Positions 1,169 through 43,808 of a DNA stretch of 64,000 nucleotides are shown here, piece after piece. The stretch lies in the NCBI RefSeq assembly GCF_013122565.1, contig NZ_CP053258.1; one strand, given 5' to 3'. Each line of letters opens with the position of its first letter. Position 1 is the stretch's first letter. This DNA is from Escherichia coli (GTDB taxonomy: Bacteria > Pseudomonadota > Gammaproteobacteria > Enterobacterales > Enterobacteriaceae). The translations under genes were made by a program, and so were the position numbers. The notes under the pieces are model-generated. The model was not told where the DNA came from and ran no database searches. It saw nothing but the letters and a program-made list of their open reading frames with translations.

Positions 1169-3055
1169 CTACTCTTCCATCGCCTGGCGGATCTGATCCA
1201 ACGACGCAGGATCATCAATGGTTGTCAGATCCCCAGGATCGCGTCCTTCACAAATCGCCTGGATCGTGCGCCGCAGCATTTTTCCGGATCGCGTTTTTGG
1301 CAATTGCGAGACAAACCAGACGTGCGCCGGCCGGCCAAAGTTGCCAATCTGGCTGTCCACCAGCGCCATAATCGCCTTCTCTTGCGAGTGCGCCACCTCG
1401 CGGTCTTCCAGACTGTCGCTCTCTTTCGGAATGACAAACGCCAGCGCCACCTGCCCTTTCAGCGCATCTTTCACCCCAACCACCGCCACTTCGGCAACGC
1501 CCGGATGACTGGAGATACTCTCTTCAATCTCGCGCGTCCCCAGCCGATGCCCGGCAACGTTAATCACATCGTCAGTGCGCCCGAGAATAAAGTGATAACC
1601 GTCAGCATCGCGGATACCCCAGTCAAAGGTGGCGTACACCGGACGGGAAAACAGCGACCAGTACGTCTTCACAAAGCGGTCGTCGTCGCCCCAGATGGTC
1701 TGAATACACCCCGGCGGCAGCGGCCCTTCCACCACCAGCATCCCTTTCTCGTTGACGCCGCACGGTTCGCCGGTGACTTCATTAAGCAACTGCACGTTAT
1801 AGCCATACATCGGCACGCCGGGGCTACCCAGACGCGTCGGCCTGTCGTCCAGACCGCGAGCAATCGCCATAATCGGCCAGCCGGATTCGGTCTGCCAGTA
1901 GTTGTCGATGACCGGCACATCCAGCGTATTGCTCACCCAACTGGCGGTCGGCTCGTCCAGCGGTTCTCCAGCCAGATAGAGCACTTCCAGCGACGAGAGA
2001 TCGTGTTTGCGAATTTCAGCGGTAGGGAATTTTTTCAGCACGCGAATGGCGGTCGGCGCTGAAAACATCCGGCTAACCTGATATTTCTCGACGATTTTCC
2101 ACCACACACCGCAGTCCGGCCAGGTCGGCAATCCTTCGTAAACGATAGTCGCCATCCCCGCCAGCAGCGGCGCGTAGACGATATACGAATGCCCCACCAC
2201 CCAGCCGATATCCGAGGCGCAAAAAAACACGCCGCCCGCTTTGCCGCCAAAAATGGTGTCCATCGAGGTCGCCAGCGCCACCGCATATCCGCCGACGTCA
2301 CGCTGCACGCCTTTAGGTTTGCCGGTCGTGCCGGAGGTGTAGAGAATGCAGGAGGTTTCGTTGGATTCCAGCCACGCCACCGGTACCCGTGCGCCGATGT
2401 GTTGATGGCGCAACGACGCGAAATCGACATCCCGCCCGCTGACGCGCGCCATTTTCGCCAGCCCGCGATCCACCAGCAAAACGTGGCGCGGCTGATGCTG
2501 CGCCTGACTTATCGCATCGTCGAGCAATTTTTTATAGGGAATGATTTTGCCACCGCGCGCCCCGGCATCAGCCGAGACAATCAGCACCGGTTTAGCGTCA
2601 TCAATTCGCGCCGCCACGCTGTGCGAGGCAAATCCCCCAAACACCACCGAATGAATAGCGCCAATGCGCGCGCAGGCCAGCAGAGTAATATGCGCTTCGG
2701 CAATCATCGGCATATACACCAGCACCCGATCGCCACGCTGCACGCCCAGCGAGCGCAGCATTGACGCCACCGCGTTCACTTCGTCATGCAGCTGGCGAAA
2801 GGTAAAGGTGCGCTCTTCTTCTGTTTCCGAAGAGACGGCAATCAGCGCCAGCGCCTCTGGCTGTTTCTCCAGCCAGCGGTCGATAGCGTTGTGGCACAAG
2901 TTGGTTCGGCCTTCACAAAACCAACGGGCAAACGGCGGATTGCTGTGATCAAGCGTTTGCGTAAAGGGCATCTGCCAGTCAATACGCCGGGCCTGCTCGG
3001 CCCAGAACTGCTCCGGTTCGTTAATCGAACGCTGATAAAATTCGCTAAAAGACAT
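1169..3055 (-). CDS. prpE: propionyl-CoA synthetase (acyl-CoA synthetase family)
   Basis: 628-aa ORF MSFSEFYQRSINEPEQFWAEQARRIDWQ...; AMP-binding motif YTSGTTGKPKG. Confidence 0.93.
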   Translation of the reverse strand: MSFSEFYQRSINEPEQFWAEQARRIDWQMPFTQTLDHSNPPFARWFCEGRTNLCHNAIDRWLEKQPEALALIAVSSETEEERTFTFRQLHDEVNAVASMLRSLGVQRGDRVLVYMPMIAEAHITLLACARIGAIHSVVFGGFASHSVAARIDDAKPVLIVSADAGARGGKIIPYKKLLDDAISQAQHQPRHVLLVDRGLAKMARVSGRDVDFASLRHQHIGARVPVAWLESNETSCILYTSGTTGKPKGVQRDVGGYAVALATSMDTIFGGKAGGVFFCASDIGWVVGHSYIVYAPLLAGMATIVYEGLPTWPDCGVWWKIVEKYQVSRMFSAPTAIRVLKKFPTAEIRKHDLSSLEVLYLAGEPLDEPTASWVSNTLDVPVIDNYWQTESGWPIMAIARGLDDRPTRLGSPGVPMYGYNVQLLNEVTGEPCGVNEKGMLVVEGPLPPGCIQTIWGDDDRFVKTYWSLFSRPVYATFDWGIRDADGYHFILGRTDDVINVAGHRLGTREIEESISSHPGVAEVAVVGVKDALKGQVALAFVIPKESDSLEDREVAHSQEKAIMALVDSQIGNFGRPAHVWFVSQLPKTRSGKMLRRTIQAICEGRDPGDLTTIDDPASLDQIRQAMEE

Positions 3056-3094
3056 AATGCTCTCCTGTTGAACTTACGCCTTACCGCTGTTTGC

Positions 3095-4546
3095 TTAAAT
3101 GACGTACAGGTCGAGATACTCATTGACCGGCATCTGTTCCAGGCGAGTTCTGTCGAGAGAAACCTCCAGAATGCGCTGCTGTTGGCGAGTCGGGAACTGG
3201 CGCGCGAGATTGATTTTGAATTTATCCACCAGTTTCGGTATACCATCCTGACGGCGGCGAGCATGACCAATTGGGTAGTCCACCACCACTTCTTCAAATC
3301 GTGTGCCGTCGGTGAACTCAAGGGTTATGGCATTGGCGATGGCACGTTTTTCCGGGTCGTGGTAGTCAGCGGTAAATGCCGGATCTTCAAAGCAATTGAT
3401 CTTCTCGCGCAGGGCATCAATGCGTTTATCTTGCGCAACGTTGTCTTCGTAATCTGCCGCCGTTAAGCGCCCGAATAACAGCGGGATCGCCACCATGTAC
3501 TGAATGCAGTGGTCGCGGTCTGCCGGGTTATTGAGCGGCCCTTTTTTGTCGATGATGCGAATACAGGCTTCGTGGGTGCGAATGGTCACTTTTTCGATAT
3601 CTGCCGCCGTTTTGCCTGCGGCCTGCATCTGTTCATAGAGCGTCATCGCCGCTTCAACTGCCGTCTGGGAGTGGAACTCCGCCGGGAAGGAGATTTTGAA
3701 CAGCACATTTTCCATGACGTAAGAACCGTACGGGCGCTGGAAGCGGAACGACTCACCTTTAAAGGAGACGTCGTAGAAGCCCCACACCGGCGCGGTCAGG
3801 GCTGACGGGTAACCCATTTCGCCCGTTTTCGCCATCAGTGCCAGACGTACCGCGCGGGAAGTGGCATCGCCCGCCGCCCAGGATTTACGCGTGCCGGTGT
3901 TCGGCGCATGGCGATAGGTGCGCAGCGACTGACCGTCCACCCACGCCAGCGAAACGGCGTTGAGAATTTCCTCGCGGGTCAGACCGAGCATTTCGGCGAC
4001 CACGGCGGTGGAAGCCACTTTCACTAACAGAACGTGGTCGAGGCCAACGCGGTTAAAGGAGTTTTCCAGCGCGATGCAGCCCTGAATTTCATGGGCTTTG
4101 ATCATTCCGGTCAGCACCTGTTTCATGGTCAACGGCGCTTTGCCGCTGGCAACCGCGTTGCGCGAAAGCCAGTCCGCCGTTGCCAGAATGCCGCCGAGGT
4201 TGTCGGAAGGATGGCCCCACTCCGCCGCCAGCCAGGTATCGTTGAAATCGAGCCAGCGGATCATCGCGCCAATGTTAAATGCCGCCTGGACGGGGTCGAG
4301 CTGGAACTGAGTTCCGGGGACGCGCACGCCGTTAGGTACGACAGTGCCGGGGACAATTGGCCCCAGCAGTTTTTTACAGGCCGGGTATTCGAGAGCTTCA
4401 AGACCGCAGCCGAGAGTGTCGAGCAGGCAGTAATGGGCGGTGTCGTAGGCTACTCTGGAGCTGATTTCGTAGTTCATCACGTAATCGACGATATCAACGA
4501 TTTCACGATCAAATTCCGGGCGGATGTTGTTGATTTGAGCTGACAT
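3095..4546 (-). CDS. prpD: 2-methylcitrate dehydratase
   Basis: 483-aa [26 protein letters not shown]...; operon position between prpE and prpC. Confidence 0.93.
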
Positions 4547-4579: not shown

Positions 4580-5749
4580 TTACTGGCGCTTATCCAGCGC
4601 GACAAACTGGCGGTCTTCCGGTCCAACATAATTGGCGGAAGGACGGATAATTTTGTTGTCCTGACGTTGTTCAATGATGTGTGCCGCCCAGCCGGTGACG
4701 CGGGCGATAACAAACAGTGGGGTGAACATCTCGGTGGGAACGCCCATCATGTTGTAGGAAACAGCAGAGAACCAGTCGAGATTGGGGAACATCTTTTTAC
4801 TCTCCCACATCACCGTTTCCAGGCGATCGGCGATGTTGTACATCTTCAGCGAACCGCCTTCCTGCGAGAGCTGCTTCGCCACGCGTTTGATCACCTGATG
4901 ACGCGGGTCGGCGATGGTGTAAACCGGATGACCAAAACCAATGACCACTTCTTTGTTTTCCACGCGCTTGCGGATATCTGCTTCGGCTTCGTCCGGCGTT
5001 TCGTAGCGTTGTTGGATCTCCAGCGACACTTCATTCGCCCCGCCGTGTTTCGGCCCGCGCAGTGCGCCAATCGCGCCAATAATCGCGGAATACATATCAG
5101 AGCCAGTGCCCGCAATCACCCGACTGGTAAAGGTGGAAGCGTTAAACTCGTGTTCGGCGTACAGCACCAGCGAAATATGCATCGCCTTTTCCCAGCTTTG
5201 CGACGGCTTTTCGCCATGCAGCAGATGCAGGAAGTGACCGCCGATGGAGTCGTCATCGGTTTCCGGCTGGATACGTTCGCCGTTATGGCTGTAGTGATAC
5301 CAATAAAGGAGAATCGAGCTAAGTGATGCCAGCAGTTTGTCGGCAATATCCCGCGCGCCAGAGACGGTATGTCCCTCTTTTTCTGGCAGCGTGCAGCCGA
5401 GCGCGGAAACGCCGGTGCGCATAACATCCATCGGGTGCGACGCCGCCGGTAAGGCTTCCAGCACGGTACGCACGTTAGCCGGTAAACCGCGCAGGGCTTT
5501 CAGTTTCGTTTTGTAGGCGGCGAGTTCGTCACGGGTCGGCAGTTTGCCGTGGATCAGCAGATGCGCCACTTCTTCAAATTCGCAATGTTCCGCCAGATCA
5601 AGAATGTCGTAGCCGCGGTAATGCAAGTCATTGCCGCTTTTACCCACGGTGCAGAGCGCCGTATTGCCCGCCGGAACGCCGGAAAGTGCTACCGATTTTT
5701 TCGGTTTAATGACATGGGTACTGTTTTGCAGGATCGTTGTGTCGCTCAT
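4580..5749 (-). CDS. prpC: 2-methylcitrate synthase
   Basis: ORF track gives 431 aa from an upstream in-frame start running through REP sequence; the start at [18 protein letters not shown] gives 389 aa. Confidence 0.9.
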
Positions 5750-34900: not shown

Positions 34901-36233
34901 TTGAGGCATTGCCTTTGTTATCGTAGGCAACCGCAGAAATCGCATAATAATTGTCTTTGCCTGCCTGGTAAGCCGGGAGCGTCACTTGCCACTGATTACC
35001 CTGCCCCGTAATTTTTCCGCCTGCGGCCAGCAAAGACGGCGCTTCCCATTGAACATTTTTCAGACCGTGAGTTGCTTTACTCACCACAAGCCCCAGGGAA
35101 ACCGTCTGCCCGCCCTTGCCTTCAATACGTTCAGGCAGAGCAATACGGATCACTTCAGATTTGCGGTACTCAAGAACGATGTTGTTATTACGCTCAACCA
35201 GGTCATAGCGGCTGCCTGCCAGCATTCGACGCTCGCGAATGCTGTCTGTATCGAGTTGTTTTTGCAGAGGTTCGCCAATCCGATAATTAACTTCCAGGCC
35301 AAAGCGAGTGTCATTCTCACCACTCTTGCCCTGCTTATGCCCGGCACTCAGGGTCAGAAGAGGCACTGGCGTATAGGTCACCTCGGCAGAAATAGCATGC
35401 GGGTCTTTCTGGCGTTTATCTTTACCAAACAGCCCGACTTCATCGCCATAATACTGTTCATACATCAGGCTTGCGCCAAGCTGCGGCCAGGCGGGTAAAT
35501 AGCCCTCAGCACGAATATCCCAGCCATTCGCCGGGCGTTCCTGATAATCCTCAACATCCGGCGATTTTTTCCAGCCAGAAGCCCGGATATAACCATTGGC
35601 GCTCAGTTTCAAATAATCACGCCAGTATTCCGCACCAACACCAATGCGGGTATGACTACGGGATAAATCATGGTCGATAAAGGTGTTCACCCCCGCCATC
35701 CAGTCATTTCCTGAAAAATGACGCCAGCCAAAACCAATATTTGACTGAGTGCGATCATCTGTACGATGTATTGCCCCCTGAGTGAACAACATATTTGTCG
35801 GCGTATCATAAATAGGATAAAGCATTTCCAGAGAAGAATCCTTCAGCGAGAAATCTTTATCGACATTGAGTTTGACGCGCGCAGTACCGTATTTCCCGAG
35901 CCACTCCTGTATTTCCTGGTTAGCTTTAGCGGTGGCCATTCCGGTAATAAAGTTACGTGTCGCATCGCTATCTGGCTGACTGCTTAAAAAATTCCCAGCA
36001 TTTGCGGCAAACGACGCGACATTTTTCTCCACATTATTATCAGCAGCTACTGTGGTATTTTCCATGCTCAACCGTGGCTGAACCGCATGCTGCGCGCGTG
36101 CCGCCATTACTGGGGTAAAGGTGACCGCGAGTGGAAAAAGAACCTGAACAGAGATATTTGCCCACGCCACACAGCGGGCCAGAACTGAATAACGAAATCG
36201 TGGTTGTTTATGACCTGTTTTATAACGCGACAT
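31980..36233 (-). CDS. eaeH: intimin/invasin-family outer-membrane adhesin, full length (EaeH/FdeC)
   Basis: 1417-aa ORF; N-terminal beta-barrel region followed by many tandem Ig-like repeats; truncated pseudogene in K-12 as I recall. Confidence 0.85.
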   Translation of the reverse strand: MSRYKTGHKQPRFRYSVLARCVAWANISVQVLFPLAVTFTPVMAARAQHAVQPRLSMENTTVAADNNVEKNVASFAANAGNFLSSQPDSDATRNFITGMATAKANQEIQEWLGKYGTARVKLNVDKDFSLKDSSLEMLYPIYDTPTNMLFTQGAIHRTDDRTQSNIGFGWRHFSGNDWMAGVNTFIDHDLSRSHTRIGVGAEYWRDYLKLSANGYIRASGWKKSPDVEDYQERPANGWDIRAEGYLPAWPQLGASLMYEQYYGDEVGLFGKDKRQKDPHAISAEVTYTPVPLLTLSAGHKQGKSGENDTRFGLEVNYRIGEPLQKQLDTDSIRERRMLAGSRYDLVERNNNIVLEYRKSEVIRIALPERIEGKGGQTVSLGLVVSKATHGLKNVQWEAPSLLAAGGKITGQGNQWQVTLPAYQAGKDNYYAISAVAYDNKGNASKRVQTEVVITGAGMSADRTALTLDGQSRIQMLANGNEQRPLVLSLRDAEGQPVTGMKDQIKTELAFKPAGNIVTRSLKSTKSQAKPTLGEFTETEAGVYQSVFTTGTQSGEATITVSVDGMSKTVTAELRATMMDVANSTLSANEPSGDVVADGQQAYTLTLTAVDSEGNPVTGEASRLRLVPQDINGVTVGAISEIKPGVYSATVSSTRAGNVVVRAFSEQYQLGTLQQTLKFVAGPLDAAHSSITLNPDKPVVGGTVTAIWTVKDAYDNPVTSLTPEAPSLAGAAAVGSTASGWTNNGDGTWTAQITLGSTAGELEVMPKLNGQDAAANAAKVTVVADALSSNQSKVSVAEDHVKAGESTTVMLVAKDAHGNAISGLALSASLTGTASEGATVSSWTEKGDGSYVATLTTGGKTGELRVMPLFNGQPAATEAAQLTVIAGEMSSANSTLVADNKAPTVKTTTELTFTVKDAYGNPVTGLKPDAPVFSGAASTGSERPSAGNWTEKGNGVYVATLTLGSAAGQLSVMPRVNGQNAVAQPLVLNVAGDASQADIRDMTVKVNNQLANGQSANQITLTVVDSYGNPLQGQEVTLTLPQGVTSKTGNTVTTNAAGKVDIELMSTVAGEHNISASVNGAQKTVTVKFNADASTGQANLQVDTAVQKVANGKDAFTLTATVEDKNGNPVPGSLVTFNLPRGVKPLTGDNVWVKANDEGKAELQVVSVTAGTYEITASAGNSQPSNTQTITFVADKATATVSGIEVIGNYALADGKAKQTYKVTVTDANNNLLKDSEVTLTASPASLNLEPNGTATTNEQGQAIFTATTTVAATYTLTAQVSQNNGQVSTKTAESKFVADDKNAVLTASSDVQSLVADGKSTAKLEVTLMSANNPVGGNMWVDIQTPEGVTEKDYQFLPSKNDHFVSGKITRTFSTSKPGVYTFTFNALTYGGYEMKPVTVTITAVAEDTAKGEEAAK

Positions 36234-37128
36234 TGAGATAATTTCCTGATGAACGAATTAACGAACATATGCAGACACAAATAATGGCGTCTGCTTGTCA
36301 GAAAAACCGGGAATTTCCCGGTTTCCTTTTCCGCAGAAAAGGAAATACCTTTATGTAAGAAAGTGCACCGCCACCTAATATATTCAGTGTCTGTAGCCAC
36401 TCATCAGGTGGTTGGGCGCGGGATTATATTTTTATTTATGGGTGAAAATTTAGCTTTTTGTGCAAGTCATTAAAGTATGATTGTCACACTATATTCTCCG
36501 TTTAAATACAGTGAATATATTTTTATTTAAAGTGAATAATGATGTTCTGCTTTTAGTGACCACGATTAGAATTACGCCTAAAGAGGTATATGTTCATAAT
36601 AAGCCAATATTTTTTAAGGGTATTTATTTTCTTTCATCGGGCTATAAAATCCCGAAATATCGGATTTGCACAGCACCGATCAACAGTGCTTAAGCAGGCG
36701 GGTGCTGTTTACGACCAGGATAGTTAAGATAATATCCGGGAAAAGTTGGACATCAGCCCTGTAGAACCTGAATAAGTTCGCCTGACTTTACATAATCATG
36801 AACCGCGTTTTCGGAGCCACAGGCGGTACCAAAGTAAAAGGCTGGTGATGGGTACCTTTAGCCGAATCAGGTAGAAGTCATGAAATTCCCCCCTTAATCC
36901 ACAGCGTGTTCCTGAACTAACCATTCCGGATAGACTATTGGATCAAATTCAGGCATCGAAAGGAACAGGCTGTTTCCCGTTAAGGGATTAATTATCTATT
37001 TTCCTTAATAGATAACTGATGTAATACCTCTATTCAAATTTGTGATACATGTCAAAAAATTGGTTGACCAAACTCGTTATTTATATAAGGACACTTACGA
37101 AGTGCATTTTTAAAGCGAGGAAGTACCA

Positions 37129-37230
37129 ATGAAAGAGAATAAAGTACAGCAAATCAGTCATAAACTGATCAATATCGTTGTTTTTGTTGCAATAGTAGAA
37201 TACGCCTATTTATTTCTCCATTTCTATTAA
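37129..37230 (+). CDS. ykgR: small membrane protein YkgR (33 aa)
   Basis: ATG preceded by GAGGAAG; MKENKVQQISHKLINIVVFVAIVEYAYLFLHFY; not in the ORF track (too short). Confidence 0.6.
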   Translation: MKENKVQQISHKLINIVVFVAIVEYAYLFLHFY

Positions 37231-37290
37231 TAACGGCAATAAACTGTTCACTTTAGTGATATTTAAAATATGCATCCTTTTTCTGCTTTT

Positions 37291-37317
37291 CAAGCTGTTC
37301 AAGCTGTTCAAGCTGTT
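37291..37317. repeat. perfect 9-bp tandem repeat x3 (caagctgtt)
   Basis: caagctgtt caagctgtt caagctgtt followed by partial cag; intergenic. Confidence 0.9.
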
Positions 37318-37657
37318 CAGCGGCGTAAGAGAAAGTATTGAGTATGAATTCGACGATTTAACCATATCTGTTTGATTGGTAATCATCCGTGATTAATGCT
37401 GGTCTATTGATTACGCCAGCATTAACCGCTTAGGGATGTATTCTTCCTGTTCATATACAGCCCTCGAAAAAGAGAGCAAATAAAACTGTGTCCAATATTA
37501 CTCTACCACTCCAGACCGAAGTATCGGTAGAATTAGCAGAACGGCTGGTACAGTAGATTGGGATAGCGTCATTTGTCAGGCATTCCATTGCCATAATAAT
37601 AATTATGAATCAATAGACGTGCTTCTTGATCATGTCTTAAAAATTATACCACGAGCC

Positions 37658-37888
37658 TTATGAAGCATCATTTTTACTGACTGGTGTTAACTTTGCTATC
37701 ATATAAACTCTGTTCTTAAAAAACGCGCCCAGAATTTTATATGATTTTCCTTGTTTTTCTGCCTGTAAAGAAATTTCTTTTTCAGTGCTGTCAATGGTTG
37801 AACCGACGGCAGTAATCGTTTTGGCGACGCTACTGAAAGATAATAAAGACAGTGTCATCACAACAATTAAAGAACAGATAGTATTCAT
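37658..37888 (-). CDS. small secreted protein, DUF1471-like
   Basis: Start at MNTICSLIVVMTLSLLSFSSVA (76 aa); mature part resembles the YahO/BhsA family (TIDSTEKEISLQAEKQGKSYKILG). Confidence 0.5.
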   Translation of the reverse strand: MNTICSLIVVMTLSLLSFSSVAKTITAVGSTIDSTEKEISLQAEKQGKSYKILGAFFKNRVYMIAKLTPVSKNDAS

Positions 37889-38103
37889 GCTAATTCTCCT
37901 GACAATTGAGAGGATGAGTTTTATATACATAGATATTAAACATGAGTCATATTTACTCCAAGAGAAAATACCCCTTCTGTAATTAAACCTTCATCTCCTT
38001 CGGAATGAGTAATGCATAATATAATGCATCTTGCTATGCAAAACAGTGGATATAAATTTTCCTCCCGACCTATTTAATAAAACGTGAATGTAAAAGTTAT
38101 TCT

Positions 38104-38841
38104 TCAGTTTGCAGATGCAGTGGGTCTGATGGTAATTTCGGTTGTATCAACGCTTTCGGGCGATTCAATAATATGCCTTACAGCACGGGCAATATCCGCA
38201 GGTTGAAGTGCAACAGAACGGTAGACATCCATTGCCTTCATGGTTTCCACATGGGTAATGGTTGAAGCCAGTTCACTTTCGACAACGCCAGGATTTACGC
38301 ATGTCACACGGATTTTCGAGCTTTCCTGCCGTAAGCCATCAGAAATAGCCCTTACTGCAAATTTTGATGCGCAATAGACTGCGCCTGTGGGCACAACAGA
38401 AAGGGCACCAATAGAACCAAGATTGATTATCTGACCGGAACCCTGTGCTTCCATCACCGGAAGTACAGCGCCAATTCCCCAAAGTACACCTTTGATATTC
38501 ACGTCTATAGTGAGCTCCCATTCATCCTGTTTTCCTGCTGCAAGCGGTGAAAGCGGCATAACGCCCGCATTATTGATAAGAACATCAACTCGCCCCCAGC
38601 TATCCAGCGCTGCTTGCACGAAATCGGCCATGGACTGTCGGTTTGTGACATCCAACTCCCGCGCTTTAGCAATTCCTCCTGCGCGGCAGATTTCGGTTGC
38701 AATGGCTTCGATACGCTCAACTCTGCGTGCGCCCAGTAAAACCTTTGCACCTGTCGTTCCCAGCGCTCTGGCAATACCTTCCCCAATACCACTTGATGCG
38801 CCGGTAATTAATATGACCTTATCCATTACGTTCTCCTTCAA
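38104..38841 (-). CDS. short-chain dehydrogenase/reductase (SDR)
   Basis: 245-aa ORF; Rossmann motif TGASSGIG, NNAG motif, catalytic YxxxK (YCASK); true start may be MDKVILITG. Confidence 0.85.
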   Translation of the reverse strand: MKENVMDKVILITGASSGIGEGIARALGTTGAKVLLGARRVERIEAIATEICRAGGIAKARELDVTNRQSMADFVQAALDSWGRVDVLINNAGVMPLSPLAAGKQDEWELTIDVNIKGVLWGIGAVLPVMEAQGSGQIINLGSIGALSVVPTGAVYCASKFAVRAISDGLRQESSKIRVTCVNPGVVESELASTITHVETMKAMDVYRSVALQPADIARAVRHIIESPESVDTTEITIRPTASAN

Positions 38842-38924
38842 ATGTGTTCGGAGAGAGAATAGAACTTTATGATTGGTTCCAGTATCCTGCTTTCAATGTA
38901 CTCAGTGGTTAGCGGCATTAAACA

Positions 38925-39824
38925 ATGAAAATCGATCTTAATCTTTTACCCATTTTTATCGCGGTAGCAGAAGAGAGTAATTTTAGTAAAGCCGCCGCAC
39001 GACTGGGCGTTACCCGTTCAGCGGTCAGTCAGGGAATAAGACGCCTTGAAGATGCATTCGGGACAATGCTTGTAATGCGGACCACGCGCTCAGTTAATTT
39101 GACGGAAGCGGGAGAACGGCTGCATAAATCGTTGTCATTACCTTTATCCGGTATTGAGGCAACGTTCGAAGAGATGGTTTCTGACCATGTGCCACGCGGA
39201 CTTCTCAGAATCGCGGTGACGTCGATAGCAGAAGAATTTCTTTCAGGTCCGCTAATCGCTTCGTTTGCAGCTGCCAATCCAGCCGTTACGCTTGATATTG
39301 TTGTAACGGATGAGGAATTCGATATCGTGGCCGCAGGTTACGATGCTGGCGTAAGGCTCGGAGAGGTCATTGAAAAAGACATGATTGCTGTGCCCATTAC
39401 CGGCAGGCAGCGTGAAATGGTCGTTGCCTCTCCCTCCTATCTCGCAGCCAACAGCACTCCTGTTCATCCGCGTGAACTTGTGAATCATAAGTGTATCGGC
39501 TGGCGTCAGTCCCCGGAGGTTGCGCCTTATCGCTGGCCATTTGAAGAAAACGGGAGAGCTTTCGACCTTGCGATTGAACCGCAGATTACGACTAATGATC
39601 TGCGTCTGATGTTGCGGCTGGCTCTTGCCGGTGGAGGAATAACAATTGCCACTCAGGAAACTTTCAGGCCGTATATTGAAAGCGGTAAGCTTGTATCGCT
39701 GCTTGATGACTTTCTTCCACAATTTCCGGGCTTCTATCTGTATTTCCCACAGCGTCGCAATATTGCACCAAAGCTCCGCGCCCTGATTGACCACGTCAAA
39801 GAATGGCGGCAGCAATTGACTTAA
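38925..39824 (+). CDS. LysR-type transcriptional regulator
   Basis: 299 aa; N-terminal HTH (FSKAAARLGVTRSAVSQGIRRLE); divergent from the SDR gene. Confidence 0.85.
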   Translation: MKIDLNLLPIFIAVAEESNFSKAAARLGVTRSAVSQGIRRLEDAFGTMLVMRTTRSVNLTEAGERLHKSLSLPLSGIEATFEEMVSDHVPRGLLRIAVTSIAEEFLSGPLIASFAAANPAVTLDIVVTDEEFDIVAAGYDAGVRLGEVIEKDMIAVPITGRQREMVVASPSYLAANSTPVHPRELVNHKCIGWRQSPEVAPYRWPFEENGRAFDLAIEPQITTNDLRLMLRLALAGGGITIATQETFRPYIESGKLVSLLDDFLPQFPGFYLYFPQRRNIAPKLRALIDHVKEWRQQLT

Positions 39825-40389
39825 ATGTCTGCACCTGCACGGCCTGATGTCAGAACAATATTTTGATGAATTGCCTACACCAGCTAGCCGCAGCACATTC
39901 TTGCATACGACATGTCTGCGGTTTACTTTTCACGCTCAAACCTTATGGTAAAGCACAATAATGATCCCCAGGGCTATATAAATGTTTTGTAATTAGCTCT
40001 TAAGACGAACTTTTCAGACTAACTTCTTTATTCATCCATAATGAAGACTGTATTAGGAAGTTCTCTAAAAACATGAATAACCACTGTCTTACAATGAATT
40101 TAGTTTACAGAACATTCTTATTGAGAAAAAACAACACTGTACACACCCAATAATATAGAAATGTAAATTTAAGTTTATTAATCTTTTGAATTATAATCAT
40201 AACTTTCTGTTAACCATTAGAATATCAATAGATTATAATCACTGAACACACATTTTTATAATTGCTATTCCCACACTCAAAATGCGCATCCCAATATCTT
40301 ATTTGACACTTTGTTGTTTGCTACTAGAGTTAATTGGGTGCTGACAAGGCACATGTTATTTACAAATTGGAAATCAGAGGAGAAATGAT

Positions 40390-40572
40390 ATGACCGAACA
40401 TCGTGGCGGTGCAGGTAATTTCGCTGAAGATCGACAAAAAGCTTCTGACGCAGGTCGTAAAGGTGGCCAACAAAGTGGTGGTAATTTTAAAAACGATCCA
40501 CAAAGAGCATCAGAAGCAGGGAAAAAAGGTGGTCAGAATAGCCATGGCGGCGGTCGTAAATCTGACTCTTAA
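40390..40572 (+). CDS. KGG-repeat stress protein (YciG/YmdF family)
   Basis: 60 aa with repeated GG[NQ]..KKGGQ motifs. Confidence 0.8.
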   Translation: MTEHRGGAGNFAEDRQKASDAGRKGGQQSGGNFKNDPQRASEAGKKGGQNSHGGGRKSDS

Positions 40573-40645
40573 TTTTTCATCTCCCTAAATTCGTGAATAA
40601 CTGCAGCTAACTGCGAGCCTACGGGCTCGCAGGGACAACTCTGGA

Positions 40646-41152
40646 GTGATTATGCAAATTAAATCTGTTGAAGATATCTTCATCCATTTATTATCTGACA
40701 CATATAGTGCTGAGAAACAACTAACCAAGGCACTATCTAAACTTACTCGCTCCGCATATAGTGATAAATTAACCGCTGCTTTTCAGTCACATCTTGATGA
40801 GACACATGGTCAAATTGAACGCATCGACCAGGTTGTTGATTCTGAAGATGGTATTAAACTAAAAAGAATTAAGTGCGCCGCAATGGAAGGCCTTATTGAA
40901 GAGGCGAATGAGGTAATTGAAAGCACTGACAAAAATGAAATACGTGATGCTGCGTTGATTGCAGCAGCACAAAAAGTAGAACACTATGAAATTGCCAGTT
41001 ATGGCACCCTGGTAACACTTGCTGAGCAATTAGGATTTAAAAAAGCGGCTCAACTCCTGAAAGAAACTCTGGAAGAGGAAAAAGCTACTGATGTCAAATT
41101 AACAGACCTGGCATTTAATAATGTTAATAAAAAAGCTCAGGATAACTCCTGA
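40646..41152 (+). CDS. DUF892 ferritin-like protein (YciE/YciF family)
   Basis: 168 aa ...VEDIFIHLLSDTYSAEKQLTKAL...KVEHYEIASYGTL... Confidence 0.8.
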   Translation: MIMQIKSVEDIFIHLLSDTYSAEKQLTKALSKLTRSAYSDKLTAAFQSHLDETHGQIERIDQVVDSEDGIKLKRIKCAAMEGLIEEANEVIESTDKNEIRDAALIAAAQKVEHYEIASYGTLVTLAEQLGFKKAAQLLKETLEEEKATDVKLTDLAFNNVNKKAQDNS

Positions 41153-41186
41153 ACTATAGACTTCACTTTTTTAGGAGAAATATATT

Positions 41187-41693
41187 ATGAATAGCATTGA
41201 ACATTATCATGACTGGCTTCGTGACGCACACGCAATGGAGAAACAAGCGGAATCAATGTTGGAGTCTATGGCCAGCAGGATAGAAAACTATCCTGAGTTA
41301 CGTTCCAGAATTGAGCAGCACATTAGCGAAACAAAGAACCAGCTTTCACAGCTTGAAAGCATACTTGATCGTAATAATATTTCTCGCTCTGTCATTAAAG
41401 ACTCTATGAGTAAAATGGCCGCGTTTGGGCAATCTATTGGTGGAATTTTTCCATCTGATGAAATTGTCAAAGGTTCGATCAGTGGCTATGTTTTTGAACA
41501 ATTTGAAATTGCGTGCTACACATCTCTTCTCGCAGCAGCCAAAAATGCGGGTGATACAGCTTCAGTACCAATTATTGAAGCAATTCTTAATGAAGAAAAA
41601 CAAATGGCTGAATGGCTTCTTAACCATATTCCAGACACCACTGAGCAGTTTATGGTCAGATCTGAAATTGATGGCGCTGAAGCAAAAAAATAA
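41187..41693 (+). CDS. DUF892 ferritin-like protein (YciE/YciF family), second copy
   Basis: 168 aa MNSIEHYHDWLRDAHAMEKQAESML...FEIACYTSLLAAAKNAGD... Confidence 0.8.
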   Translation: MNSIEHYHDWLRDAHAMEKQAESMLESMASRIENYPELRSRIEQHISETKNQLSQLESILDRNNISRSVIKDSMSKMAAFGQSIGGIFPSDEIVKGSISGYVFEQFEIACYTSLLAAAKNAGDTASVPIIEAILNEEKQMAEWLLNHIPDTTEQFMVRSEIDGAEAKK

Positions 41694-41711
41694 TTCTTTA
41701 GAGGAGGAATT

Positions 41712-42602
41712 ATGTTTAGACACGTGAAAAAACTTCAATATACAGTACGTGTAAGTGAACCAAACCCAGGCTTAGCTAATCTACTTTTAGAACAATTCGG
41801 CGGCCCACAGGGTGAGCTTGCAGCTGCATGCCGATACTTCACTCAAGGTTTAAGTGATGAAGATGCAGGTCGAAGGGATATGCTGATGGACATAGCAACA
41901 GAAGAACTAAGCCATCTCGAAATTATTGGTTCTCTTGTTGGTATGCTCAACAAAGGTGCAAAAGGAGCACTCGCTGAAGGAACTGAGAATGAAGCGGAGC
42001 TTTACCGTTCCTTAACTCAAAATGGCAATGACAGCCATATAACTTCTCTTCTCTACGGAGGAGGCCCAGCATTAACTAATTCAGCTGGAGTACCCTGGAC
42101 TGCAGCTTATGTTGATACTATTGGCGAAGTCACAGCCGATCTTCGTTCAAATATTGCAGCTGAAGCTCGTGCAAAGATCATTTACGAGCGTCTCATTAAT
42201 GTTACTGATGATCCTGGAGTGAAAGACACTCTGGCATTTTTAATGACCAGGGAAGCAGCACATATGCTTTCTTTTGAAAAAGCATTACATTCAATTCGTA
42301 ACACTTTTCCACCAGGAAAATTACCACCGATTGAGAAGTACAAAAACGTATATTACAACATGTCAGAAGGTGAAGATGTCAGAGGTAGTTGGAACAGTGA
42401 TGAAAACTTTGATTATGTTTCCGATCCAGTTCCAGCTGTTGACGGTGGGGATGGGAAGGCCTCGATAATTCTTTCGACCAAGCAAGAAGCTATGATAAAA
42501 GCTATGGCAACAAGGTTGAAATCCCATGAAGATATCAATCCTGTCACTGGCGCTGAGCTTGCTGAAGGAGAGCCACAAACAAAGGTAAATAGTAAAAACT
42601 AA
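41712..42602 (+). CDS. manganese catalase (KatN-like)
   Basis: 296 aa; ...LAAACRYFTQG...EELSHLEIIGSLV... and ...REAAHMLSFEKAL... typical of di-Mn catalases. Confidence 0.75.
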   Translation: MFRHVKKLQYTVRVSEPNPGLANLLLEQFGGPQGELAAACRYFTQGLSDEDAGRRDMLMDIATEELSHLEIIGSLVGMLNKGAKGALAEGTENEAELYRSLTQNGNDSHITSLLYGGGPALTNSAGVPWTAAYVDTIGEVTADLRSNIAAEARAKIIYERLINVTDDPGVKDTLAFLMTREAAHMLSFEKALHSIRNTFPPGKLPPIEKYKNVYYNMSEGEDVRGSWNSDENFDYVSDPVPAVDGGDGKASIILSTKQEAMIKAMATRLKSHEDINPVTGAELAEGEPQTKVNSKN

Positions 42603-42692
42603 TTATCTTCTGGTATTTAGCTATCTCTCATAAATTTTAATGGCCGCAGAGATATCCTAAGCTCTAGCCACTGAAAATACATTTATATTTCG

Positions 42693-42725
42693 AAGCCCGC
42701 GATATTATAAGCGGGCTTTTATTTT
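42693..42725 (+). terminator. rho-independent terminator after the catalase gene
   Basis: Stem aagcccgc/gcgggctt (8 bp) followed by TTATTTT. Confidence 0.7.
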
Positions 42726-42832
42726 AACCTTCTGGTATTACAGGCCACTCAATATCCGGTGCTACTGATGGCTCAACACGATTCAACAACATCCGATATG
42801 TCTTCCATGCGGCCATTCAACATTTCGCAGAA

Positions 42833-43718
42833 ATGCAACTAAGAGACATTACTGAATCAAAAATTTATTCAGCAATGCAGAAAATGACGAACCGGCGTCA
42901 TGAGGAAAACTGGAAACTCAGGGCAGAAGCATGCAGAAAAAAGGGAAACCTGTTCCAGAATACACGCCAAACCCAGCGTCTGTTGCAACGAAGGCTACGC
43001 ATCTTTCATTTATAAAAGCCCTGCTAAGAGCCGCAGAGCGTGAATAGAAAATGCTGGATAAGGCACCAATTATTAAAGTGCCTCAACCGAAGAATAAACG
43101 GATCCGCTGGCTGGAACCTCATGAAGCACAAAGGCTGATTGATGAATGTCCGGATCCATTAAAGTCTGTTGTTGAATTTGCACTGGCAACAGGTTTAAGA
43201 CGCTCGAACATCATCAACCTTGAATGGCAACAAATAGACATGCAGCGCCGGGTGGCCTGGATAAACCCGGAAGAGAGTAAATCAAACTGCGCGATTTGCG
43301 TTGCGCTGAATGATACTGCATGTCGAGTATTGAAAAAACAAATCGGGAATCACACCGTTGGGTATTTGTGTAAAAGGAAAGCTGTACAAAACCAGACGGA
43401 ACGAAAGCGCCAACAGTCAGGAAGATGCAGTATGACGCAAACACAGCCAGGAAAACGGCGCTGAGACGAGCTGGTATTGATGATTTCAGATTTCACGACT
43501 TGAGACACACCTGGGCAAGTTGGCTGGTTCAAGCCGGAGTCCCGTTGTCAGTGTTACAGGAAATGGGAGGCTGGGAGTCTATCGAAATGGTTCGACAATA
43601 TGCTCACCTCGCACCTAATCACCTTACCGAACACGCACGGCAAATAGACTCGATCCTAAACCCATCGGTCCCAAATTTGTCCCAGTCAAAAAATAAGGAA
43701 GGTACTAACGATGTGTAA
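42833..43718 (+). pseudogene. decayed tyrosine recombinase (phage/island integrase) beside thrW
   Basis: Three consecutive short ORFs in different frames; second and third carry integrase catalytic boxes ([18 protein letters not shown]; [12 protein letters not shown]...MVRQYAHL); N-terminal half absent or degenerate. Confidence 0.75.
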
Positions 43719-43732
43719 CTTATTGATTTAAA

Positions 43733-43808
43733 TGGTGCCGATAAGAGGAGTCGAACCTCCGACCTTCGCATTACGAATGCGCTGCTCTACCAACTGAGCT
43801 ATATCGGC
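43733..43808 (-). tRNA. thrW: tRNA-Thr (anticodon CGU)
   Basis: Minus strand GCCGATATAGCTCAGTTGGTAGAGCAGCGCATTCGTAATGCGAAGGTCGGAGGTTCGACTCCTCTTATCGGCACCA; full cloverleaf, anticodon loop TTCGTAA, encoded CCA. Confidence 0.92.

Follow-up and report, generated by a model that had tools for sequence, protein, structure and literature searches.

Short repeats on both sides of ykgR in an Escherichia coli lineage are very probably scars of gene loss

The window analyzed here is a 64,000-nucleotide stretch of the Escherichia coli contig NZ_CP053258.1 (assembly GCF_013122565.1), in which the ykgR gene lies among decayed genes. The gene order in this part of the window is fdeC, pseudogene remnants, ykgR, a minus-strand gene for a hypothetical protein of 76 or 90 aa, a minus-strand SDR gene and a LysR gene, followed by genes for a KGG stress protein, two DUF892 proteins and a Mn catalase, an integrase remnant, thrW and proA. 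The FdeC, SDR and DUF892 proteins of the window are identical to QJU25368, QJU25370 and QJU25373, no exact match to its LysR protein is on record, and its betB shares 97.4% identity with the best match among 5426 complete genomes. Three repeats found at 36992-37425 by a first-pass annotation are the subject of this study, and they are listed below together with the features that surround or overlap them.

36848-36991, plus strand: 3′ relic of a gene for an NADH-dependent flavin oxidoreductase, with the stop codon TAA at 36989-36991
36992-37015, no strand assigned: perfect palindrome, TTATCTATT (36992-37000) and AATAGATAA (37007-37015) with the 6-nt spacer ttcctt
37006-37278, plus strand: conserved ykgR block, made up of the promoter region, the ykgR CDS and 48 nt of 3′ flank
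37129-37230, plus strand: ykgR CDS, whose product matches YkgR (WP_000662258.1) of 6EVA and the K-12 annotation
37270-37341, plus strand: 23-aa ORF from the ORF list (MHPFSAFQAVQAVQAVQRRKRKY), in which an ATG from the ykgR 3′ flank is fused to the ykgO stump
37285-37319, no strand assigned: 9-bp tandem array of 3.9 units (GCTTTTCAA, GCTGTTCAA, GCTGTTCAA, GCTGTTCAg)
37285-37341, plus strand: stump of ykgO (rpmJ2, ribosomal protein L36 type B), the last 13 codons and the stop codon, with an amplified A-V-Q codon triplet
37393-37425, plus strand: hairpin with a 10-bp perfect stem, TTAATGCTGG (37393-37402) and CCAGCATTAA (37416-37425), and a 13-nt loop
37658-37888, minus strand: convergent hypothetical gene of 76 aa (90 aa from an upstream ATG), taken from the ORF list and annotated or called in 6EVA and its relatives

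Direct reading of the sequence and the repeat finders agreed that the palindrome, the tandem repeat and the hairpin all lie where the first-pass annotation had placed them, and its description of the sequence was accurate. The three perfect copies of caagctgtt at 37291-37317 were recovered by the repeat finder, and TRF reported an array at 37285-37319 with a period of 9, 3.9 copies and a score of 63. To judge how often such features arise by chance, they were counted in shuffled sequences. A 9-bp array of three copies was found in none of 30 dinucleotide shuffles of the whole window, and the tandem array is thus not a chance feature. Perfect 9-bp inverted repeats with a spacer of no more than 10 nt occurred 3.3 times per shuffled window, and at least one was present in 8.5% of the shuffles of the stretch 36234-37657 (1424 bp, 37.5% GC), so that the palindrome on its own is not significant. 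Stems of 10 bp occurred 1.1 times per shuffled window, and at least one was present in 3.4% of the shuffles of 36234-37657. The tandem repeat is therefore clearly non-random and the hairpin moderately so, while the palindrome is not.

The ykgR block (query positions 307-579) was found by Megablast in 5073 of the 5426 genomes at about 95% identity, and blastn aligned it to K-12 with 94.9% identity over 277 nt. Positions 37006-37278 are the only part of the region 36992-37425 that is common to typical E. coli. On the left, the block begins with the final spacer base of the palindrome, adjacent to the right arm, and on the right it ends 7 bp before the tandem array. This coincidence of the block edges with the palindrome and the array was the clue that explained the repeats. 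The 76-aa gene forms the other boundary of the decayed spacer; it was also considered as a homologue of YkgL or a member of a Pfam family and was rejected as either, as neither the 90-aa nor the 76-aa form has any similarity to K-12 YkgL or any Pfam hit. Exact look-ups of the 58-aa, 39-aa and 90-aa ORFs in the sequence collection returned none on record. The Rfam 15 covariance models gave no match at E ≤ 1 on either strand of 36000-38500, the promoter scan returned 8 promoter-like hits against 7.3 expected, which is the chance level, and the ykgR papers that were consulted describe no regulator site or terminator. Even among the 99.3%-identical relatives of the window, the spacer has many slippage-type indels (TT at 37106, A at 37332 and ATA at 37592), which would be expected of unconstrained AT-rich DNA.

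In the K-12 annotation, ykgM and ykgO lie exactly between the two homology blocks shared with the window, directly after ykgR. The adjacent ykgM-ykgO (rpmE2-rpmJ2) genes form one operon and encode the zinc-independent paralogues of L31p and L36p (PMC9825181). Positions 3967-4110 of the K-12 locus (L002), which comprise the last ten codons of ykgO and 114 nt beyond, were aligned by blastn to window positions 37312-37454 with 74% identity (E = 4e-19), and the ykgO match was extended to the left with MAFFT and Smith-Waterman alignments. The K-12 ykgO gene ends with cgt ttt aag gcc gtt cag ggt cgt aag aaa aaa cgt TGA (R F K A V Q G R K K K R stop), and the unexpanded allele of 6EVA reads gct ttt caa gct gtt cag cgg cgt aag aga aag tat TGA (A F Q A V Q R R K R K Y stop). 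No gap interrupts the alignment of the two, which share their reading frame and stop codon, and 7 of the 12 residues are identical. Missing from the window's copy are ykgM with its promoter and 33 of the 46 codons of ykgO (about 3278-3950 of K-12 L002). Searches for ykgM or ykgO by tblastn across the window found none; 13 codons are too short for detection at the protein level, and identification of the stump rests on the nucleotide alignment. By this alignment, the tandem array sits in a 13-codon stump of ykgO. A complete ykgO gene, i.e., a 46-codon ORF with a start codon located after ykgM, was rejected, given that only the 13 terminal codons are left as a relic. As the identity to K-12 is only 74%, the stump belongs to an old paralogous copy and does not go back to a fresh deletion of the K-12 allele. 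Together, the stump and the hairpin are the signs of a paralogous ykgR-ykgMO remnant that is present, without annotation, in about 900 complete E. coli genomes.

The lineage of the window carries 3.9 units of the repeat, and all other sequences inspected carry no more than 1.9. A single CAAGCTGTT copy was found in 22 metagenome contigs as well as in 6EVA and the O157-type genomes, whose alleles have either a long form or a form that is 9 bp shorter by deletion between CTTTT repeats. The 20 6EVA-type loci, taken from assemblies in which the genes are ordered as in the window, have one copy each, and one variant copy is found in TB06051 and strain 1190 (CAAGTTGTT, CAAGTTGCT), the latter being a long form that carries a 1-nt deletion. 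A synthetic two-copy query was run against the about 900 complete genomes that carry the region. The top-ranked record, TB06051, whose span equals that of the query, proved on checking to be a long one-copy allele, and the O157 genomes were aligned 9 nt short to the query. Given that a true two-copy allele would rank first, no two-copy or multi-copy allele surfaced among these genomes. Scanning of the GTDB representatives with a 20-mer from the ykgR 3′ flank yielded one Escherichia contig (E1V33), which has a K-12-type junction and no repeat.

At the assembly level, the window's own lineage consists of four assemblies, i.e., the window, L056, L058 and L059. The relatives were reached only via look-ups of the 166-aa DUF892 protein and the 76-aa protein; those of the 168-aa DUF892 protein and the catalase returned only the 6EVA-type lineage. 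L058 is 100% identical to the window, and L056 and L059 are 99.3% identical. By accession, these three relatives are SRR11451224 (100% over 1350 bp) and, at 99.3% identity, GCA_018578885.1 and SRR11451197; all have the array length of the window. The sole difference of the two 99.3%-identical relatives in the array is at base 37297, where their units are T-T-G-G and those of the window T-G-G-G; this change may be a point mutation or unit turnover, and it hints that turnover may be continuing. Repeat copy number thus differs between lineages and is identical in the four assemblies within the lineage. Judged from these alleles, the additional 18 bp (two units) are a fixed character of the lineage rather than a hypervariable tract, and the array is a stable lineage marker.

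None of the reading frames that cross the array holds up as a gene. The 23-aa ORF has no Shine-Dalgarno sequence upstream (gtgatatttaaaatATG), its ATG is changed to ATA in L016, L018, L023 and strain 1190, and its frame is broken by the 1-nt deletion of strain 1190 and by deletion of the A at 37332 in L056/L059. The GTG of an overlapping 39-aa ORF is CTG in most alleles, and the substitutions between the window and 6EVA are mostly non-synonymous in the 39-aa frame. With start codons lost and 1-nt indels present, the 23-aa ATG, 39-aa GTG and 58-aa minus-strand ORFs were rejected as real genes. The 23-aa ORF is an accidental chimera and not a conserved gene. The caution in the first-pass annotation, that this ORF lacks a ribosome-binding site and that an effect of the repeat on a coding frame was unproven, was justified.

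The hairpin folds with -18.9 kcal/mol (z = -4.6; 37385-37435). It is located 52 nt past the stop codon of the relic and was aligned by MAFFT and Smith-Waterman with positions 4045-4083 of K-12 L002, where a stem-loop, GGATTAATGTTGGTGT-gtttata-ACACCAACATTAATTT, lies 49 nt past the stop codon of ykgO, with TTTTCC behind it. Over equivalent spans, the fold has -23.3 kcal/mol in the window (37380-37440) and -22.2 kcal/mol in K-12, both with z of about -4.4. The core stem contains one compensatory pair, C-G in the window vs. U-A in K-12, and a wobble swap at the base. The U-tract has been replaced, with a tail of CCGCTT in the window where K-12 has TTTTCC, and the tails of the stem carry no U-tract on the plus strand (CCGCTTAGGG) or on the minus strand (TCACGGATG). 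The terminator scan of both strands did not call the hairpin; the scan permits loops of 3-8 nt and that of the hairpin has 13 nt. Of the two hallmarks of an intrinsic terminator, the hairpin has the stable stem-loop downstream of a gene and lacks the U-rich tract 3′ of the stem. The K-12 stem-loop is presumed from its position and shape to be the ykgMO terminator, and we read the hairpin of the window as the probable orphaned stem of that terminator after loss of the U-tract. At best, it might now act as a weak pause site or as a 3′-end structure for ykgR read-through. In strain 405, the hairpin is a breakpoint (see below); this breakpoint was considered as an att site of thrW and rejected, as the junction is unlike the 3′ end of the tRNA, and we regard it as the junction of an ordinary deletion or replacement.

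The left arm of the palindrome starts one base after the stop codon of the oxidoreductase relic. Window positions 36848-37000 are 86.6% identical (blastn) to positions 3590-3746 of the O157-type locus L060, in which the oxidoreductase CDS is intact (2595-3737); the 6EVA equivalent is annotated by PGAP as a pseudogene that is frameshifted and lacks its N-terminus. In K-12, the O157-type genomes (337 bp) and Escherichia sp. E1V33, the arms are separated by about 337-390 bp, and the DNA between them in K-12 (L002 2664-3000) and E1V33 (L008 9313-9703) is mutually homologous. As homologous DNA intervenes in K-12, the O157 type and E1V33, the long form is ancestral. The deletion of this spacer (~340 bp) is common to the window and the 6EVA type and has placed (T/A)TATCTATT beside AAAAGATAG. 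At all 20 6EVA-type loci (21 with the metagenome contig L026), the right arm is AAAAGATAG, which matches the left arm at 7 of 9 positions. The perfect right arm, AATAGATAA, is found only in the lineage of the window, where the two positions that had been mismatched, 37009 and 37015, and no others in the arm were substituted by the complementary bases. By our own estimate, two random changes within the arm would give a perfect match about once in 324 cases. The most economical mechanism, and most plausibly the actual one, is a single template-switch event of quasi-palindrome correction.

Two further explanations would give the palindrome or the array a present function, and they have to be weighed against this history. 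The first-pass annotation had regarded the palindrome as a plausible binding site of a dimeric regulator, and a candidate regulator of ykgR would be one of the LysR-type proteins encoded nearby; a LysR gene lies 1.9 kb away. The dyad is perfect, with arms of 9 bp and a 6-nt spacer, its center lies about 125 nt upstream of the ykgR start, and both lineage-specific substitutions raise its symmetry, which selection for symmetry would also yield. Against an operator, the left arm is simply sequence from behind a dead gene, has no relationship to the promoter region of ykgR in more than 5000 E. coli genomes and lies ~340 bp away in K-12, O157 and E1V33; the 20 nearest loci of the same architecture match at only 7 of 9 positions; and palindromes of this kind are common in shuffled windows. 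We know of no E. coli operator consensus that the palindrome matches. Because the dyad did not exist before the lineage-specific deletion and is absent from more than 5000 ykgR promoters, it is not a conserved operator, and the proposal of a regulator site did not hold; we consider control of ykgR through this palindrome very unlikely. For the array, the corresponding explanation is a contingency locus that would act either on a small peptide or on a minus-strand promoter antisense to ykgR, by altering how many TTGAAC -35-like hexamers this promoter has or how they are spaced. The array is non-random, its length differs between lineages and its unit composition differs between close relatives, and its first unit coincides in part with a weak promoter-like site of the minus strand (TTGAAA-17-TATTTT). 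However, the unit is a multiple of 3, so that gain or loss of whole units leaves the frame unchanged; the ORF has no ribosome-binding site, is built on the ykgO stump and has lost its ATG or its frame in relatives; all four assemblies of the lineage agree in array length; promoter-like hits are about as many as expected by chance; and the other alleles inspected are single-copy, with nothing to slip. The array was found neither in a functional ORF or promoter nor to switch frame or spacing, and its copy number does not vary among the four close assemblies. Its role as a contingency locus is therefore extremely unlikely. The suggestion of slipped-strand variation in the first-pass annotation is borne out insofar as the lineage gained 18 bp, while its functional side is not, with no switch found and length constant in the four assemblies. 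We also give very little credence to a combined explanation, in which the palindrome is a new lineage-specific regulatory site of ykgR perfected by selection and the array is an active minisatellite in the ykgR 3′ UTR; if true, it would mean new tuning of a small membrane protein in a lineage that has lost the adjacent ykgMO and ecp genes.

The hairpin is the feature for which a present function deserves more consideration, either as a terminator or 3′-end stabilizer between the convergent ykgR and 76-aa genes or as a preferred site of recombination. Its fold is stable with z of about -4.5 on both strands and lies between convergent genes; its arms are invariant in all island-type copies that keep the full hairpin, while the flanks vary; this invariance extends across diverged alleles, and the compensatory pair is kept vs. 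the 74%-identical K-12 paralogue. Moreover, nine metagenome contigs and strain 405 have a different island, for which the right arm forms the breakpoint. On the other hand, neither strand has a U-tract, the 13-nt loop is not called by the terminator scan, the invariance of the arms may reflect only low divergence among the island-type copies, and a single compensatory pair is weak evidence. We consider a working hairpin unlikely, although with an appreciable chance of being right.

The explanation that we favor, and hold to be very probable, is that, within the 434-bp stretch, ykgR is intact and the DNA on either side of it is non-coding and in decay, and that the three repeats are mutational scars and not working elements. 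An ancestor had the order ykgR-ykgM-ykgO-terminator that is retained in K-12. In the copy found here, a deletion of ~670 bp removed ykgM together with its promoter and left only the last 13 codons of ykgO, a stump that already contained an imperfect direct repeat, GCTTTTCAA and GCTGTTCAg (codons A-F-Q and A-V-Q), from which replication slippage in the lineage of the window would have generated two more units (+18 bp). Nothing would depend on the repeat tract, and the ORF that covers it would be an accidental fusion. The old stem-loop behind ykgO was retained with one compensatory change and without its U-tract. Upstream, the ~340-bp spacer deletion joined the decayed oxidoreductase gene to the upstream block of ykgR, making arms that were complementary at 7 of 9 positions, and two later substitutions, most plausibly from one template-switch event, brought them to 9 of 9. 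The comparisons demonstrate the homologies, both deletions, the distribution of the alleles and the compensatory pair, from which we infer that slippage and template switching were at work and that the repeats have no present function.

The O157-type genomes indicate how the present arrangement may have arisen. They contain two direct copies of the 3′ part of ykgR, 21.8 kb apart, with ykgMO, a ykgL-like gene, ecpRABCDE, ykgJ, yagU, paoABCD and genes for an MFS transporter, a hydrolase and a LysR protein between them, and the ykgO stump and the hairpin recur in the second copy. The arrangement shared by the window and the 6EVA type, i.e., a full ykgR with the flank of the second copy, would be exactly the product expected of recombination between the two copies; alternatively, the window and the 6EVA type may never have had the intervening segment. 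The lineage of the window has no ykgMO, ecp or pao at this locus, which may matter for zinc-starvation and adhesion phenotypes. The process is genome decay of an ordinary kind, in a region that adjoins thrW and is highly variable; the finding has little biological weight in itself and illustrates that repeats which stand out in raw sequence can result simply from the loss of genes.

The scars can be compared with four known systems. Relative to the K-12 ykgM-ykgO operon, the window retains, homologous and collinear, the last 13 codons and the stop codon of ykgO, a spacer of ~50 nt and the stem-loop, all directly downstream of ykgR, and it differs in having no ykgM, ykgM promoter or first 33 of the 46 ykgO codons, in the triplicated 9-bp unit within the stump and in the loss of the U-tract after the hairpin. 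Quasi-palindrome mutagenesis by template switching is reportedly described by the Ripley model and later E. coli studies. The palindrome of the window resembles it in that an inverted repeat matching at 7 of 9 positions was made perfect by two nearby complementary substitutions, and it may be a natural case of quasi-palindrome correction; the mechanism is deduced here from its outcome, which two independent mutations or selection could also have produced. Simple-sequence contingency loci, such as those of Haemophilus and Neisseria, undergo phase variation by slipped-strand mispairing. They share with the array a short tandem repeat whose copy number is changed by slippage, whereas the 9-bp unit of the window is frame-neutral, has only 3 perfect copies, lies in a pseudogene stump and shows no length variation among close relatives. 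Minisatellites of the VNTR/MLVA type occur in intergenic or decayed bacterial DNA. Although only three length alleles were seen and the tract is very short, the array is like them in its lineage-specific copy number (3.9, 1.9, and 0.9 units), in its stability within the lineage and in its possible use as a typing marker.

In O157-type E. coli, the 3' part of ykgR is present as two direct copies that are 21.8 kb apart (L032 and L060, the latter being NZ_CP032793.1). The genes found between these copies are ykgMO, a ykgL-like gene, ecpRABCDE, ykgJ, yagU and paoABCD, together with MFS transporter, hydrolase and LysR genes. The entire segment between the copies is missing in the window and in the 6EVA-type lineage, which is the nearest lineage with the gene order of the window; the common-pilus and zinc-independent ribosomal-protein genes are likewise missing at this locus. 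Recombination between the two ykgR 3' copies would leave the structure found in the window and the 6EVA-type lineage. In the window, this concerns:
37162-37278 and 37279-43800.

The spacer between fdeC and ykgR is a graveyard left by serial deletions. It contains the following remnants:
36690-36833, minus strand, C-terminus of a LysR-type regulator
36848-36991, plus strand, C-terminus of an NADH-dependent flavin oxidoreductase
In O157-type strains, the region upstream of ykgR carries intact versions of both genes and, between them, an intact alpha/beta hydrolase gene. The sole plus-strand call of the terminator scan within 36200-38200 was a terminator-like stem-loop in the spacer upstream of fdeC (36321-36346; 11 pairs followed by a T-rich tail).

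A CRP-like motif, TGTGA-tacatg-TCAAA, was found at 37041-37056, inside the ykgR upstream block that is conserved E. coli-wide and directly upstream of the TTGGTTGACC -35 region. In contrast to the palindrome at 36992-37015, this motif may be a genuine ykgR regulatory site. The T-run gcaTTTTTaaagcgaggaag in the ykgR leader (37106) lies about 20 nt ahead of the start codon; sublineages that are 99.3% identical are set apart there by a TT indel, and the run is also unlike those of K-12 and 6EVA. This variation, of the homopolymer-slippage type, lies near a ribosome-binding site that belongs to a real gene, ykgR.

Downstream of ykgR, strain 405 and nine metagenome contigs lose homology within the right arm of the hairpin (37416-37425), the last shared bases being CCAG or CCAGC:
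L034 7185-7200, hairpin right arm, breakpoint in strain 405
L010, L012, L013, L015-L018, L023 and L030, metagenome contigs with a breakpoint in this arm
Past the breakpoint, strain 405 has an island with AbiEii/AbiEi that extends to thrW and additionally holds a 3.2-kb reverse-transcriptase gene; annotations of similar records also indicate the AbiEii/AbiEi island. A retron St85 system is found further downstream in strain 1190. The interval from the hairpin to thrW is a defence-island hot spot.

The 6EVA and O157-type sequences also possess a perfect 15-bp-stem hairpin, GTCATTTGTCAGGCA-ttccat-TGCCTGACAAATGAC (L001, about 4860-4900). At 37556-37600 of the window, its right arm is swapped for a ATAATAATAAT run, in which an ATA indel at 37592 distinguishes sublineages.

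Where the arrangement is of the K-12 type, a hairpin comes after the ykgR 3' block: CCTCTCCC...GGGAGAGG in K-12 (L002 3274-3317), whose counterpart in Escherichia sp. E1V33 is CCTCTCCCTCC...GGGAGGGGA (L008 9974-10016); the ykgO stump (37285-37341) occupies their place in the window. Given that the K-12 and E1V33 hairpins differ in sequence yet still pair, a stem-forming inverted repeat has been kept across species.
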